Below are positions 52,128 through 64,000 of a DNA stretch of 64,000 nt, piece after piece. The notes under the pieces were generated by a model. The model saw only the letters and a program-made list of their open reading frames with translations. It was not told where the DNA came from and made no database searches. The first letter of the stretch is position 1. Every line of letters begins with the position of its first letter. The translations under genes were made by a program, and so were the position numbers. Source of the DNA: Spirochaetia bacterium (lineage in GTDB: Bacteria > Spirochaetota > Spirochaetia > UBA9216); contig OY776510.1 in assembly GCA_963675665.1 (NCBI GenBank), positions 3,392,001 through 3,456,000 on the forward strand, given 5' to 3'.

Positions 52128-52193
52128 CTTACTTTACATATCAGCATGGTTATTGATAATCTGTATACTGATAAAACTAGTAAGGAGAGTCAA

Positions 52194-54248
52194 ATGGGAA
52201 GCGTAGATTTACCAAAAAGTCCAATGGTATTCCACCCGGAAAAAAGAAGTGCGGTGGGTTCCAGGAACTCTCTTGCCCAGGAAAGCAGGGACCAACAGGC
52301 TGAAGTAGAACGGCTGCTTGAAGAAGAAGTCGACAAAGTAATAAACCATATGACAGCAAAATTACCCGATGAAGTTCTTTCAGAACTTGATGTAATGGGA
52401 GGTTTGAAAGAAAAGGTTTATAATTACTTCAACCAGAATTACCAGAACATGTTCAACCGTTATATTGTAACTGCTGAAGATGAAATGGTAAAAAAGGTAA
52501 GAAACTTCGTTGATAAAGAGGAAATGAAGGTTCTTACAAGATACACCCCGAAAGAAATAGCTACACTGCTTGAAGAAGTAGGTGGAATGGATCGCTTCAA
52601 TACCGGCGAAATTGAGAAATCAATTGTAAACATGTACGGACACCTGCAGGGACATATACAGCGTGGTATGAATGATCTTGAAAACCTGACCAATTCACTG
52701 CTGAGACAAAAAACGGATGTTGGTGCTTTTATCAGAGGCGAGAACGCGTATTCGGTTGTAAAATGTTCATTCAAGGACAGTATTCAGAAACCTAAAACTG
52801 TATGCAACGTAAAACTGTCAGTCAATATTCTTGATTCGGAACTGATAAGTCCAATCTTTCATTATCAGGCAACTGTAGAGTATTTGATTAAGGATTTGAT
52901 TTCAAAACAGATTATCGATGCAATCGATAAGGAAATCGAAGTTTTCAAGGATGAAAGACTCGACAAGGGGCTTGAAGAATTAAACGACAGTGAAATAATC
53001 TTCACCAAGATGGGGAAGGTTGAAAACCACACATCCGATGATGTCAACAATGCAAAATCAGCACGGTACAGCTACATTTCAAAGAGCATAATGGAAAAGG
53101 TTGAAGGCCTTCGGGCCGAGATTGATCCTGAAGAATTCGATCCGCTTAATATCAGGGAAAATCTTAAAAAGATTATGGATATCGAGAATATTCGTAACAG
53201 AGGGTATAATACCGCCATTAACTCAATTACAAGTATTCTTGATACTTCAAAGATGGGTTATCAGTATATAGAGAACCTTAAAAATGCACGCGAGCTTGTA
53301 ATTCGTGAATACGAAGATACAGACGATGCAACTTTACCTGATGAACGTTACAAAATAAGAATGAAATACTACGATAATGCACAGCTCATCGAAGAAAGAA
53401 AAGCCTATGATGTACAGGTTAAATCTTTTGAGGTTGAAGTTGAACACATCTGGGACGTTCTTGAAATGGTATACGTAGACGGAAAGAGAATGAAAAGAGT
53501 CACTGACTTTGAAGATCTCTCTAAAATCTACAAAAACAAGGTTAAGAAAAAAATAAAGGTAAAAACCGGTGATCCGGTTTACGAAGATATAGAAAAAAGC
53601 TGGGATGAAGTATCTTTTGTAGATGCTGCTGAAACTGAAGTAGAAAAAATGAACAGGACTTATGTTTTCCAGAAAGATAAACTGCATAAGAAACTTGTTA
53701 TGATGAGAGAAAAACTTCAGGAGATGTACGGTTACAGGTATCCGGTTCAGAGAAGGGTAATGGAAGACAGACTGGCTTTTCTTACTTCTGAATTTGCGAA
53801 ATTTGATTACATCATTAATCCGTATCATATTCAGCCGGGACTCCTTCTTGATGTTGATATTACTTCAATAAAAAGAAAGAAAGCGACTCTGGACGGTATG
53901 GCTAATGTTCTCAATGAATTCCTGCACGGTGTTTCCAAAGGTTTTCAGGATGCAGCATTCGCAGCCTTCTCAAGAAGAAGATCGACCGTACGTGAAGATA
54001 TAGACATGAGCTTTTCATCAGATCTTGAAGAAGAAGATGCGGGGCACCAGCAGTCTTTGGGTTCATCATATCTTGATATGTTGAATGCGCCTGCAGAAAG
54101 CAGTCCTGCTGAAACAACAATTAAAGAAAAAGCACCGGCCAAAAAAACAAAAGCTAAATCTACTGCCAAATCAAAAGGCGTTGTGGATAATGATAAAACA
54201 AAAACTAGACGTGGCAGGCCCAGGAAGAGTAATTTGGATACTATCTGA
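52194..54248 (+). CDS. cfpA: Cytoplasmic filament protein A
   Basis: [24 protein letters not shown]-terminus, [40 protein letters not shown], matching treponemal CfpA as recalled; AAGGAG RBS before ATG 52194. Confidence 0.9.
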
Positions 54249-58641: not shown

Positions 58642-60531
58642 TTATTTTTTTTTTGATTGTTCAGCCTTTTTACTGTACATCTCAGCCCATTCGATAAGAC
58701 CTTTCTTGCGGTAGATTACACTCATATTATAATAAACTCTTCGGTCGCTGATTCCGTTGTAAATGCATTTTTGAAAAACATTGAGAGCTTCTTCATCCAT
58801 ACCGTTTTTATAAAGGGTTACTCCGTAAACAAGAAGAAGGTCTACAGACGGTTTTTTGAAAGCCTCTATGGCGCTTTTCAGTAAAGGAAGAGTTTCAGAA
58901 TCTCTGCCTTCTTTTCTCATGCAGAAAAGAAGCAGTTTCAGATATTCCTCATTGAAAGGTGAATTTGAAAGCAGCTGTCGATAGAGAATCGATGCTTCCC
59001 TGTAAATTCCGGCCTTGCGGCAACAATATGCCAGCTTTTTAATGTAAAAAATTTCATTTGAGAGAGAAGCTATAATTCTATACTGGTCTGATGCAGTCCT
59101 GTAATCACCGTTTCTGACAAGCATTCCGGCGTAAAGAATCCTTCTTTCGGTATCATTTTCATAAAAAGAAAGATATTTCTTAAGTACTGGCAACAATGGT
59201 TTTCCGGCAGGTTCTGCCGATTCTATCAGTCCGTTCCAGGCATCGCTCAGACTGTTCTCAATTTTTAATGCATTTTTGAATGAACTGTAAGCGCGCAAAT
59301 AATCAGATACGGACATTTCACCATATCCTTTTGCTGTGAGCAGCCAGCCGTCTTTCTCTTTTTTTAAACGGTTTTCGACGGCGGGTTTCCAGGTATTATA
59401 ATCTTTGTTCAGCTTCCAGCTGCATAATATGCGGTAGTATTCCGCAAAATCATCGTCCGGATTCTTTATTTCGATTATATCAAGTTCGGAATCAACTCCT
59501 GAATAATCATTCTCAAGCCATCTTACTGATGCTCTGCCGTAATGCGGTTCTACGGTTTTTTTATTAATTTCTGAAGCACGGGTGAAATGATTATATGATT
59601 CTTCAAGCCTTCCGCTGTTTTTGAGACATTCGCCGGCAAGAAGATGCATGTCGTAAGTCCGTTCTTTTTTTAAAGAAGAAATTGCGTAATACAGGGCGGT
59701 GCTGTAATCTTTTTTTAGCCAGAAGGCGACGGCAAACGATTGCCCGGTATTATCCAGGGTGTTTAAAAAAGATTTTATTTCGTCCTGCTCTTTATATGTT
59801 GACAGTAATTCAAAGGCACTGTCGATATCACCGACCAGCATGTATAATTCAGCAAGAATGTTTTTTACAAGGGAATCTTCAGGTACAATACTCGCTGCAT
59901 AATATATATATTTGGCAGCTTTGACATATTCTTTTAATTCTTTATAGATTATGCCCGTATATAATTTTGTCGTAAGAGAAGTGAAACCTGAATCTTCAAG
60001 AAAAAGAAGCCCCTTTAAAGCTTTTTGGTAATTTTCATTCCTGAATTCCTTAAGAGATAAAACAAGAATGCTGTTTATATACATCGTATTGACTTTTTTG
60101 TTATTTGGTTCTTCAGCGATAGCTTTTGAAAGGTAATCTACAGCCTTTTCAGGACATCCGCAGCGCAGCATCGCATATCCAAGGTAGACAAGCGAAGGCG
60201 CAAAATCAGGTTTTAACCGCAAAGCCTCATTAAAGCAAGATGCGGCACGGTGGAATTTGCCTGTTGCTATGTAGGTTCTGCCGAGATAGAAATAACCTGC
60301 ACCGGATTTTGGAGCTTTTGTAATATAAAGCCTCAGAGAAATAATGGCGTCATCAAAATTTCCAAGCTCGTGGCAGGCACGTCCAAGGTAAAGCAGCGCT
60401 TCGGGTATATCATCCGAAAGATTTAAAACATTTCTGAGTTTTATTACGGCTGCCGCGTAATTGCGCCTGCGTCCGTCTTCGATTGCATTTTGGAATAAAT
60501 TATTAACCCTGTTTTTTGAATTTACCACCAA
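58642..60531 (-). CDS. Cytoplasmic tetratricopeptide repeat protein
   Basis: Multiple TPR units (ALLYLGRA, GYFYLGRTY, SLVYLGYA, VYYNMSVIY); no signal peptide. Confidence 0.85.
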   Translation of the reverse strand: MVVNSKNRVNNLFQNAIEDGRRRNYAAAVIKLRNVLNLSDDIPEALLYLGRACHELGNFDDAIISLRLYITKAPKSGAGYFYLGRTYIATGKFHRAASCFNEALRLKPDFAPSLVYLGYAMLRCGCPEKAVDYLSKAIAEEPNNKKVNTMYINSILVLSLKEFRNENYQKALKGLLFLEDSGFTSLTTKLYTGIIYKELKEYVKAAKYIYYAASIVPEDSLVKNILAELYMLVGDIDSAFELLSTYKEQDEIKSFLNTLDNTGQSFAVAFWLKKDYSTALYYAISSLKKERTYDMHLLAGECLKNSGRLEESYNHFTRASEINKKTVEPHYGRASVRWLENDYSGVDSELDIIEIKNPDDDFAEYYRILCSWKLNKDYNTWKPAVENRLKKEKDGWLLTAKGYGEMSVSDYLRAYSSFKNALKIENSLSDAWNGLIESAEPAGKPLLPVLKKYLSFYENDTERRILYAGMLVRNGDYRTASDQYRIIASLSNEIFYIKKLAYCCRKAGIYREASILYRQLLSNSPFNEEYLKLLLFCMRKEGRDSETLPLLKSAIEAFKKPSVDLLLVYGVTLYKNGMDEEALNVFQKCIYNGISDRRVYYNMSVIYRKKGLIEWAEMYSKKAEQSKKK

Positions 60532-60561
60532 ATAAGGTTAACATATAATTGATATTTATAC

Positions 60562-60590
60562 TTGTGGATTTTTATTAAAAATGATATAAA
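60562..60590 (+). promoter_or_regulatory. Putative promoter upstream of the Moco-like RNA
   Basis: TTGTGG(60562-60567)-17 nt-TATAAA(60585-60590) with extended TG; predicted start about 60597. Confidence 0.5.
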
Positions 60591-60601
60591 TATTCAACGG
60601 A

Positions 60602-60703
60602 TTTTCTCCGAATTATTTCAGCTAAGGCATTTATCGCTATGCAGGAATAATCGATGGGTATTGATGGAAACGTTAATGCCTCCCGCACTTGGAAAGGAGA
60701 GGG
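60602..60703 (+). ncRNA. Moco/Wco (molybdenum/tungsten cofactor) riboswitch-like RNA, apparently lacking P3
   Basis: P1 TTCTCC/GGAGAG; P2 ATTATTTC/GGAATAAT containing a GAAA-receptor-like GCTAAG...CTATGC; P4 GGTATTGATG-GAAA-CGTTAATGCC; 3' signature GCCTCCCGCACTTGGAAAGGAG. Confidence 0.8.
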
Positions 60704-60719
60704 ATTATGGCAGAAACTT

Positions 60720-60770
60720 GCCCGCTCCTTCTTTTGGAAGCGGGCGTATTTTTGCCTTTTTATAAAGGCA
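60720..60770 (+). terminator. Terminator-like hairpins downstream of the Moco-like RNA
   Basis: GCCCGCT(60720-60726)...AGCGGGC(60739-60745) followed by GTATTTTT; second hairpin TGCCTTT/AAAGGCA (60753-60770). Confidence 0.65.
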
Positions 60771-60926
60771 GAATTTAAAATATCATAGTTCGGGTCGATC
60801 GCAAAAAAGGTTTGTATATAGTTTCCACCATAATCCTTCCGTATATGAACAGCGATTGGCCCGTTTTTTCCAACAACCACTTTGTTTTTATCTTCACATT
60901 TAATGCGCTTTCTGATACATTTCGGT

Positions 60927-62354
60927 ATGGAAGACAAGAGTATATTCAGAAATATTTCACCGCTCGATCACCGATATTATTTATCAAATCGACAGATTTT
61001 CGATTCATTAGCTGACTACATCAGTGAAGAAGCAAGCATTATGTATTGCATCAAGGCGGAAGCTGCGCTGCTTAAAAGTCATATGAGCCTGTACGGCGAA
61101 AAATATGCAGAGTTTTCCAGTATTGTTGATACGCTGGCTGACTCAATAAAACCTGAAGAAGTTTATGAGGAAGAAGAAAAGACCCAGCATAATATCAGGG
61201 CCCTTGTCAATGTGATGAAGAACAAGGTGCCGGATGAACTAAAACCTTTTATTCATCTTGGAGCAACATCAGTAGATATTCTTGATACTGCATCGTCAAT
61301 GAAGTACCGGGATGCAGTCAGAAAGGTGATTCTGCCGCAGCTTATAAAACTGGAAAAGCAGCTTGCCGAAATCGCTTCAAATGAGGCCTGTACCCCGCAG
61401 GTAGGAAGAACCCACGGGCAGCATGCAGTTCCAATTACCCTCGGCTTTGCTTTGTCGGAATATGTATCCAGACTCGGTAAATCAATTGTTGAAATAGAAA
61501 GGCTCTCGAAGGAACTGAGAGGAAAACTGGCAGGCGCTGTAGGATCATACAATTCAACCAGCATGATAGTCAGCGATCCTTTTGATCTTGAAGAACGATA
61601 TCTTGATTTTCTCGGTTTGAAAGCCTCCGAACATTCAACCCAGATGGTGGAACCGGAATATCTGTTGAGACTTCTTACCGAGATAAATACCGCTTTCGGA
61701 ATAATTGCAAATCTTGCCGATGACCTGAGAAACCTGCAGCGTTCGGAGATATCGGAGCTGAGGGAAATGTTTACGGCCACCCAGGTTGGGTCATCAACAA
61801 TGCCGCAGAAAAGAAATCCGTGGAATTCCGAACATGTTAAAAGCCTGTGGAAGGCGTTCAGTCCCCGCGTGATTACATTTTTCATGGACCAGATCTCGGA
61901 ACACCAGAGGGATCTGTCAAATTCTGCATCAACCCGGTTTATTGCTGATTACCTTGCAGGATTCACTGCGGCAGTTGCCCGTATGATAAAAATTACTGCA
62001 ACACTTTATGTCGACAGGGAAAGACTTTCAGCAAATCTGAATTTCACCGGGGACCTTGTATTAGCTGAAGCTGCATACATTCTTCTGTCATGCGCAGGAG
62101 AACCGGACGCCCATGAGGTTATCCGGAAAGTAACGCTAGAGTGTGAGAAAAATAAAACTACTCTGGCTGTTGAACTGCCGAAAAAACCGGAAACATGGAA
62201 AAAAATCTCTACGCAGCTGAAGACTGTTACTGGTCAGGATGCTTCAGATTTCTTTTCAAAGCCGGAGATGTACCGGGGCAAATCAGCTGAAAAGGCTGAG
62301 GCCATATCAGCAAAATATAAGGAAACAATGAAAAAACTTGAGGAGAGCCTTTAA
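60927..62354 (+). CDS. purB: Adenylosuccinate lyase
   Basis: ISPLDHRY, HLGATSVD, GRTHGQHA, GAVG, signature GSSTMPQKRNP, HQRDLSNS; ATG 60927. Confidence 0.93.
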   Translation: MEDKSIFRNISPLDHRYYLSNRQIFDSLADYISEEASIMYCIKAEAALLKSHMSLYGEKYAEFSSIVDTLADSIKPEEVYEEEEKTQHNIRALVNVMKNKVPDELKPFIHLGATSVDILDTASSMKYRDAVRKVILPQLIKLEKQLAEIASNEACTPQVGRTHGQHAVPITLGFALSEYVSRLGKSIVEIERLSKELRGKLAGAVGSYNSTSMIVSDPFDLEERYLDFLGLKASEHSTQMVEPEYLLRLLTEINTAFGIIANLADDLRNLQRSEISELREMFTATQVGSSTMPQKRNPWNSEHVKSLWKAFSPRVITFFMDQISEHQRDLSNSASTRFIADYLAGFTAAVARMIKITATLYVDRERLSANLNFTGDLVLAEAAYILLSCAGEPDAHEVIRKVTLECEKNKTTLAVELPKKPETWKKISTQLKTVTGQDASDFFSKPEMYRGKSAEKAEAISAKYKETMKKLEESL

Positions 62355-63793
62355 TGAATATAAAAGAATCACTCAGTTACGACGACGTTCTGCTAGTTCC
62401 GGGATATTCTGATGTTCTGCCGCATACCGCCGATGTCCGAACCAGGCTTGTAAAAGACATTTACCTGAATTCTCCGATTATTTCAGCGGCAATGGATACC
62501 GTAACGGAGGAAGAGCTTGCAATAGCGCTGGCGCTTGAAGGAGGAGCCGGAGTTATTCACAGGAATTTAAGCCCGAAAGAGCAGGCCTCTCAGGTGGCCT
62601 CTGTAAAGCGTTTTCTTAACTGGATAATAGAGAAACCCGTCACAGTGCTTGAAGACACGCTGATAGGCGATGTGAGACGGCTGAGAGAAGAATACGGGGT
62701 GTCAGGCTTTCCCGTAACAAATACCGAAGGAATTCTGACGGGTATAATTACCGGAAGAGACCTCAGATTTCTGGAAGACGACAACCTTCATGTAAAAGAT
62801 GTAATGACTCCGAATCCGGTTATTGCAGAAGGGGTGCCGACCCCGGAAAGCGCCAGAATAAAATTTAATAAACACAAGATAGAAAAACTGCCAGTAATAG
62901 ACAAAGACGGAAAAATAACAGGATTAATTACCGTAAAGGATATGGAAAAGCATGGAGATCACCCTGAGGCGGCAACTGATTCATCAGGAAGACTTATAGT
63001 GGGCGCAGCAATTTCCCCGCAGGATTATGACCGAAGGCTTCCGCTTCTTGTGGAGAGCAAGGTTGATTTTGTAGTGCTTGATACCGCCCATGGCGACGCA
63101 AAAAGCGTCAGCGACGCGATAAGCGATATTAAACGCAAATACAGTGTCCCGGTTGTGGGCGGAAATGCAGCTACCGCAGAGGCTACAAGACGTCTTATAG
63201 ATGCAGGCTCCGATGCGGTTAAAGTAGGCGTCGGTCCGGGGTCAATCTGTACTACAAGAATTGTAGCCGGAATCGGAGTCCCTCAGTTTTCAGCCGTTTC
63301 ATGGTGCGCGGAAGAAGCAGAAAAAGACAATATCCCGGTGATTGCCGACGGCGGCATAAAGTTTTCGGGTGATATTCCGAAAGCAATAGCTGCAGGGGCA
63401 TCGTCTATAATGGTCGGCAATCTTTTTGCAGGGTTAAAGGAAGCTCCCGGCAGCGAAATAATATTTGAAGGCAGAATCTTCAAACAGTACAGGGGAATGG
63501 GCTCGATCGGGGCAATCAAGGAAGGCAGCGGAGATCGCTACCAGATGAAGAAAGGTGATACTCCGGTACCGGAAGGAATCGAGGGGCGTGTGCCGTATAA
63601 GGGCGAGCTCAGGGCTTTTCATCATCAGCTGATAACCGGTCTGAAAAAAGGGATGACCTATTGCGGTTGTTCGAACATAGAAGAATTGCGTAAATATCAG
63701 AATTTTGTTAAGATTTCGCCGGCCGGTTTAAGAGAGAGTCATGCTCACGATATCATGATTACTCAGGAAGCGCCAAACTACTCGAAAAACTAA
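62354..63793 (+). CDS. guaB: IMP dehydrogenase (with CBS pair)
   Basis: [23 protein letters not shown], catalytic [32 protein letters not shown]. Confidence 0.97.
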
Positions 63794-63803
63794 GAGGTAT
63801 TTT

Positions 63804-64000
63804 ATGAATCTTGTTGTTGTCGGAGCTCAATGGGGAGACGAAGGCAAAGGAAAAATTGTTGATTATCTTGCTGAAGAATCTGATCTTATCGTAAGATTTT
63901 CGGGCGGCGCGAATGCCGGCCATACAATCGTTGCCGGAGATGTTACTTACAAGCTTCATCTCGTTCCGTCAGGTATTATTTACGACGACAAAAAGGTTGT
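63804..64000 (+). CDS. purA: Adenylosuccinate synthetase (3'-truncated by window edge)
   Basis: [22 protein letters not shown]...[13 protein letters not shown]...LHLVPSG; GAGG RBS. Confidence 0.95.

Follow-up and report, generated by a model that had tools for sequence, protein, structure and literature searches.

The Moco RNA motif has 176 described members, 58 of which are without P3, and these P3-less members have been tied to tungsten-cofactor genes (Regulski et al. 2008, PMC2408646). Some Moco RNAs have a ribosome-binding-site platform and others a terminator platform, a tetraloop/receptor feature forms part of the motif, and repression of a reporter by the E. coli Moco RNA in vivo was dependent on the moa and moe genes and on tungstate (PMC2408646). 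The RNA analysed here lies upstream of purB-guaB-purA in a 64,000-nucleotide stretch of DNA (the window) from a spirochaete, a group that is absent from the list of phyla given in the same article (PMC2408646). It has the aptamer consensus described there for the P3-lacking class, the same absence of P3 and, by prediction, the OFF-type intrinsic-terminator platform used by some of the members. As in the tandem Moco RNAs of Syntrophomonas wolfei (PMC2408646), a P3-less aptamer is followed by successive terminators; unlike those RNAs, no second aptamer precedes the distal terminator, T2, and the second module contains no known RNA family (the best Rfam E-value within positions 60690-60960 was 0.53). 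Tungsten-type genes are likewise found in the organism, where they are under sister copies of the riboswitch. The copy in front of purB differs from the P3-lacking class in that neither a Mo/W gene nor any open reading frame follows the aptamer and in having an extra terminator hairpin whose invariant element is complementary to the flanks of P1.

Riboswitch-gated or riboswitch-derived regulatory RNAs include SreA and SreB (SAM, Listeria) and EutX and Rli55 (B12, Enterococcus/Listeria). The unit described here is like them in its own promoter and terminator and in a predicted product that is a noncoding RNA (ncRNA) rather than an mRNA leader; it is unlike them in ligand class and in that the genome-wide duplex scan described below found no convincing target at a gene start. 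We know of no counterpart of its self-complementary clamp, and a full-text literature search returned no title or abstract describing this arrangement for the Moco riboswitch class.

Results

The features of the locus, in the coordinates of the window, are the following.

60562-60590, forward strand: putative riboswitch promoter, TTGTGG, 17-nt spacer, TGaTATAAA (read by eye and from the homologue alignment)
60594-60715, forward strand: Moco/tungsten-cofactor aptamer of the P3-less subclass (RF01055 score)
60696-60718, forward strand: invariant aptamer tail of 23 nt, GGAGAGGGAUUAUGGCAGAAACU (alignment of five homologues)
60720-60754, forward strand: intrinsic terminator T1, GCCCGCTCC..GGAAGCGGGC (60720-60745) and then GTATTTTTG
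60791-60863, forward strand: second module, stem S and an A/U stem around the invariant element (covariation)
60811-60845, forward strand: C-rich element with core AGUUUCCACCAUAAUCCUUCC (60820-60840), invariant in all five homologues
60864-60869, forward strand: T tract of T2, directly 3′ of stem S in all five homologues
60893-60921, forward strand: putative purB promoter, TTCACA, 17-nt spacer, TGaTACATT (promoter scan)
60927-64000, forward strand: purB-guaB-purA operon, with purA running off the window (NCBIfam and Pfam matches)

When the whole window was searched with cmscan, the sole match was to RF01055, the Moco/tungsten-cofactor riboswitch family, at positions 60594-60715 of the forward strand. 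The match extended over the full model (positions 1-135) and scored 78.4 bits (E-value 2.8e-17), where the gathering score of the family is 36 bits, and the 15 model positions of P3 were deleted. P1 is formed by positions 60604-60609 and 60696-60701. Reading of the sequence located the GAAA loop of P4 (GGAAAC at 60667-60672) and, in P2, a receptor-like bulge, CUAAGG...CUAUG, which we take to be the tetraloop receptor motif. The core strands CUCCGA, GCCUCCCG and UGGAAAGGAG, common to the sister copies, are all in place. An earlier note on this DNA had proposed a Moco/Wco-class RNA without P3, with a GAAA-loop P4, a receptor-like P2 and the last two of these core strands; the family match, together with the P4 loop, the P2 bulge and the core strands, confirmed that observation. 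The range assigned to it, 60602-60770, enclosed a real element, the aptamer and the first hairpin, but clipped 8 nt from the 5′ end of the aptamer and missed both the second hairpin and terminator module at 60791-60869 and the long-range complementarity described below.

Five homologous units, including that of the window, were folded together with RNAalifold. Fourteen of the 68 predicted pairs were compensated among these homologues, which are close kin and therefore not independent. Changes on both sides of a pair were found in P2 (20/57, 21/56, 22/55 and 26/51) and in P4 (68/83), and P1 was invariant. The RF01055 scores of the homologues ranged from 67.9 to 81.1 bits. The RNA upstream of purB genuinely belongs to the Moco riboswitch family, in its P3-less (tungsten-cofactor) class. 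As a representative of this known family it is ordinary, and what is unusual is its arrangement.

The genome, a single contig of 5.15 Mb, contains 11 RF01055 matches above the cut-off. The usual Mo/W context was found for 10 of them; the exception is the copy before purB, with purB, guaB and purA as the next genes. The departure is one of gene context rather than of the RNA. Two of the ten other copies precede TupA-like and ModA-like ABC transporters, each with a TOBE ATPase, and five (L011, L012, L014, L018 and L019) precede FecCD/Peripla_BP_2-type transporters, two of these with genes for large radical-SAM proteins. The FecCD/Peripla_BP_2 type corresponds to siderophore/B12-like ABC transporters, which differs from the classic ModABC/TupABC context. 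The remaining three copies precede, respectively, a ferredoxin with an aldehyde:ferredoxin oxidoreductase, a binding protein adjoining a gene with a molybdopterin-oxidoreductase domain, and an NAD-type aldehyde dehydrogenase (Aldedh, 469 aa; locus L016). At this last locus the riboswitch occupies 2461539-2461671 of the reverse strand and its GGAG doubles as the ribosome-binding site of the Aldedh gene. The enzyme may stand in, independently of the cofactor, for the tungsten aldehyde oxidoreductase, and may be repressed in the presence of the cofactor. None of the 11 RF01055 sites belongs to moaA and moaC, which are adjacent at 100142-101573 (reverse strand); in this genome the making of the pterin itself appears to escape control by an RF01055 riboswitch.

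The earlier note had listed a variant with altered ligand specificity among its inferences, and one such possibility is that this copy recognizes a purine-related ligand in place of the cofactor. The gene neighbourhood by itself (purB-guaB-purA) is what speaks for such a change. Five other P3-less copies, located before the aldehyde:ferredoxin oxidoreductase gene, the TupA-like gene and others, were aligned, and every position invariant among them was kept in the purB copy, which therefore gives no sign of a changed ligand. These other P3-less copies include those that precede tungsten-type genes, namely the aldehyde:ferredoxin oxidoreductase and the TupA-like transporter. Against a purine ligand stand also the score of the purB copy, the second highest of the 11 in the genome, and the position of purB itself, which in the best reading of the locus is outside direct aptamer control. 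Altered ligand specificity thus found no support, and we consider a purine-sensing variant extremely improbable.

The upstream promoter mentioned in the earlier note was recovered as boxes at 60562-60567 (TTGTGG) and 60582-60590 (TGaTATAAA) that are conserved in this genome and in three relatives (G003, G001 and G004) and retained in a deletion derivative (G005). The top-ranked promoter of the scan tool, at 60521-60549, differs from the conserved one. The transcript would start at about 60596-60598, just 5′ of the sequence ACGGA. At the other end of the aptamer, the tail was invariant in all five homologues save for one A>G change in G003 that keeps a G.U pair. Its purine tract would form an antiterminator against T1, and the tail is also complementary to the downstream C-rich element. 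The terminator-like hairpin noted before corresponds to T1, whose stem pairs 60720-60728 with 60736-60745 and is followed by a T tract at 60749-60753. The hairpin and the T tract were kept in five of five homologues despite sequence change (2 of 16 pairs compensated). A small protein encoded after the aptamer was considered and rejected. The candidate, a frame of 23 aa from the ATG at 60707, varies in length and frame among the homologues when translated by eye, and is therefore not a gene. The spacer between T1 and stem S could not be aligned and is shorter in the four other homologues than in this genome, which alone carries an extra small hairpin in it, TGCCTTTTTATAAAGGCA, at 60753-60770.

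The folding of the nascent RNA suggested how T1 may be controlled. When the RNA was folded up to the 3′ arm of T1, the minimum-energy structure was the antiterminator in five of five homologues: the purine tract GGAAAGGAGAGGG paired with the pyrimidine-rich 5′ half of T1, and the aptamer sequence CCUCCCGY paired with GCGGG in the 3′ arm. Once P1 was forced and two core strands were barred from other pairings, T1 formed in all five; the energy gaps of 12-16 kcal/mol obtained from folding with the aptamer held in this way are inflated by the crude constraint. Since the free fold is the antiterminator and the held aptamer lets T1 form, the riboswitch is predicted to be a transcription-termination OFF switch of classic design, a direction that we infer from these folds. 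Cofactor binding would hold the conserved strands GCCUCCCG and UGGAAAGGAGAG in the aptamer, T1 would form and a transcript of about 155 nt would end there. When the cofactor is missing, these strands would instead occupy T1, both its 5′ half, rich in pyrimidines, and its 3′ arm, GCGGG; with T1 blocked, RNA polymerase would continue for about 115 nt and halt at T2.

Stem S, formed by 60791-60802 and 60852-60863, has three sequence versions among the five homologues and all of them pair, with 7 of 23 predicted pairs compensated. Because a T tract follows immediately, the stem S hairpin was taken to be a terminator, T2, at which transcription would end. The C-rich element, of about 33 nt, forms the apical loop of T2 and is enclosed by stem S. 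Both the tail and the element were invariant in five genomes while the adjoining spacers could not be aligned.

In the fold chosen by RNAalifold for the whole unit of the five homologues, the tail and the element were joined by a long-range pairing, referred to here as the clamp. It joins ACGGA at the predicted 5′ end (60597-60601) to UCCGU (60838-60842), GGGAUUAUGG (60701-60710) to CCAUAAUCCU, and GAAACU to AGUUUC. About 22 bp thus flank P1, the element being complementary to ACGGA and to the tail at 60701-60718. The clamp and the T2 hairpin are mutually exclusive in a nested fold, and in each of the five homologues their energies differed by 0-2 kcal/mol. Shuffled versions of the element paired as well with the upstream RNA in 3 of 2000 cases, and 95 of 2000 random genomic 32-mers reached the energy of the clamp. 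Covariation is absent from the clamp because both of its strands are invariant. Support for this predicted pairing is moderate.

The distribution of the unit was followed through the purB loci of relatives. Of the 29 loci scanned, 26 were orthologous and 3 were weak matches. Besides this genome, the unit was kept before purB in three of five other species of the genus (G003, G001 and G004) and in one metagenome contig (L064), and among the 29 loci no RF01055 match was found before purB outside those three relatives. In G002, of the same genus, the contig begins inside purB and the upstream region lies outside it. G005 (L024, reverse strand) bears the scar of a deletion that removed the aptamer, T1 and the invariant element and brought the riboswitch promoter directly up against the 3′ arm of stem S, with its T tract, while leaving purB, its promoter and the proximal upstream block untouched. 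In a neighbouring genus, two genomes (G008 and G010) have only about 80 nt between a divergent TPR-repeat gene and purB and are without the riboswitch; a TPR-repeat gene, divergent from the riboswitch unit, also lies upstream in the window. When metagenomes were scanned with the invariant element, 12 loci matched; only L064 was a true homologue (riboswitch score 81.1 bits), the other 11 being chance matches inside unrelated sequence. Of 401 genomes of the class, four, this one included, carry the exact element. Matches elsewhere, three with 2 mismatches and the others with 3 (L052, L053, L058 and L075-L077), had no RF01055 nearby. A repeat or mobile element was ruled out, as the element is single-copy in this genome and exact in so few of the class. 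The lineage-specific, protein-free unit at 60562-60869 is a putative transcription unit. Elsewhere in the window, a gene for the cytoplasmic filament protein CfpA, a spirochaete marker, was recognized at 52146-54248 (NF040882, 1183 bits).

The next genes in the same orientation had been named purB, guaB and purA, an assignment that NCBIfam and Pfam matches bore out. The purB product (60927-62354) has Lyase_1 and ASL_C domains, guaB (62354-63793) matched TIGR01302 with 542 bits, and purA, which starts at 63804 and continues past the end of the window, encodes 407 aa in the genome. Orthologues of purB were found across the class at 55-88% identity and the only other match to the query in this genome was a lyase relative of 26% identity at 4685717; the gene at 60927 is therefore the ordinary purB of the organism. 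Although purB is the only orthologue conserved across the class, its TIGR00928 score, 249 bits, is below the cut-off of 326, and automatic naming may miss it.

Between the end of the purB promoter and the A of its start codon lie 5 nt. No Shine-Dalgarno sequence was found at purB, whereas guaB has GAGGAG and purA has AAGAGG. The same promoter layout was read by eye in about 23 of 26 class loci (L023-L048), being ambiguous in L040, L047 and L048. Its typical form is cTTTGACAaa, 17 nt, an extended -10 box, 5 nt and ATGGAA, with no Shine-Dalgarno sequence, and it was also found in G005, G008 and G010, all without the riboswitch. This layout predicts that the purB mRNA is leaderless and starts from its own promoter, older than the riboswitch unit. 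Leaderless translation needs a 5′-terminal AUG, and a transcript reading through from the riboswitch would therefore serve purB poorly. A metatranscriptome contig of 216 nt (depth 2.4, 5 differences) covers 60880-61095 and so includes 47 nt in front of the purB ATG that a strictly leaderless mRNA would lack; assembled contigs of this kind prove neither transcription nor strand nor ends, and this one may be DNA carry-over or read-through of T2. Among 12 public runs, the one RNA run (X10) gave three assembled pieces, none of which covers 60702-60879; one of them is a 37-nt match to another aptamer copy.

Discussion

The leaderless layout and the promoter of purB, the two terminators and the deletion in G005 favour a self-contained unit. 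The explanation that we regard as best, with about an even chance of being correct, is a riboswitch-gated ncRNA unit with two terminators, insulated from an independently promoted, leaderless purB operon. The unit from the promoter to T2 (60562-60869) would yield a cofactor-gated regulatory RNA, and a separate promoter would drive purB-guaB-purA as a leaderless mRNA. The features expected of an ncRNA unit are present, namely an own promoter, a riboswitch terminator and a protein-free extension to a further terminator, and the persistence of purB and its promoter in G005 points to a dispensable unit. Among the three inferences made in the earlier note, an orphan element is the one that fits best, with two conserved terminators behind the aptamer and a purB promoter 5 nt before an ATG that has no Shine-Dalgarno sequence. 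The fact that the unit always adjoins purB counts against insulation, as a cis-regulator would show the same.

In this explanation, the read-through extension would display the invariant C-rich element, either in the loop of T2 or zipped onto both P1 flanks by the 22-bp clamp. In being C-rich and placed in an apical loop, the element resembles the seeds found in many small RNAs. Over 13,729 seeded sites, a duplex scan of the genome found no convincing trans target at a gene start; the cis site ranked about 30th genome-wide and the best other site was inside a frame of 3678 aa. Pairing of the element with the 5′ end of purB was considered and rejected, since its energy, -9.3 kcal/mol, was reached by 30% of random 40-mers. 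With no convincing target and purB pairing at chance level, a regulatory role of the long RNA is something that we infer. A tentative extension of the idea is that the tungsten-cofactor riboswitch gates a bistable regulatory RNA, a single aptamer governing the synthesis of a trans-acting molecule as well as its activity state: at low cofactor, read-through would add the C-rich element, which would then sit in the terminator loop or be clamped onto the flanks of P1.

The main rival of the insulated unit is a two-step attenuator. T1 would be read through at cofactor shortage and transcription would feed purB-guaB-purA, with the tail:element clamp as the antiterminator of T2; the genes mainly helped would be guaB and purA, each of which has a ribosome-binding site; the purpose would be more purine nucleotides for pterin synthesis from GTP, which the genome carries out as judged from the presence of moaA and moaC. 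In five of five homologues the unit lies next to purB and in the same orientation, the near-equal energies and mutual exclusion of clamp and T2 are those of an antiterminator/terminator pair, and the metatranscriptome contig does extend 47 nt upstream of the purB ATG. However, two conserved terminators separate the aptamer from purB, stem S could still form as a pseudoknot beside the clamp, and the class-wide purB promoter is one for a leaderless mRNA without a Shine-Dalgarno sequence, so that a leadered transcript would be poorly translated into PurB. In addition, G005, G008 and G010 run purB without the unit, and the GTP drain of cofactor synthesis is tiny relative to nucleotide pools. We regard this attenuator as possible but rather doubtful, and the pterin-cofactor feedback on GTP supply proposed in the earlier note was not supported.

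It is also conceivable that the riboswitch once led a Mo/W gene that was lost, leaving a functionless remnant in which the ribosome-binding site and ATG of the lost gene survive at 60696-60709. A well-spaced GGAG and ATG do follow the aptamer, as in copies that lead real genes (L016, L017 and L018), and the loss of the unit in G005 is what might be expected of a remnant. Nevertheless, the 23-nt tail and the 33-nt element have stayed invariant in five genomes between spacers that cannot be aligned, compensatory changes have accumulated in P2, P4, T1 and stem S, and the antiterminator logic is kept in all five homologues. No relative with the presumed ancestral gene was present among the purB loci scanned. 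Such a remnant is improbable.

Gene neighbourhood is the usual route to riboswitch regulons and to guesses at the ligands of orphan riboswitches. At this locus, a high-scoring aptamer directly upstream of purine genes is probably not what controls them. The class-wide leaderless purB promoter will be useful for annotating these genomes. If the read-through RNA of the insulated unit is a regulator, the Mo/W cofactor would join SAM and B12 as metabolites that gate ncRNAs via riboswitches, and the RNA would offer a handle on tungsten physiology in free-living spirochaetes.
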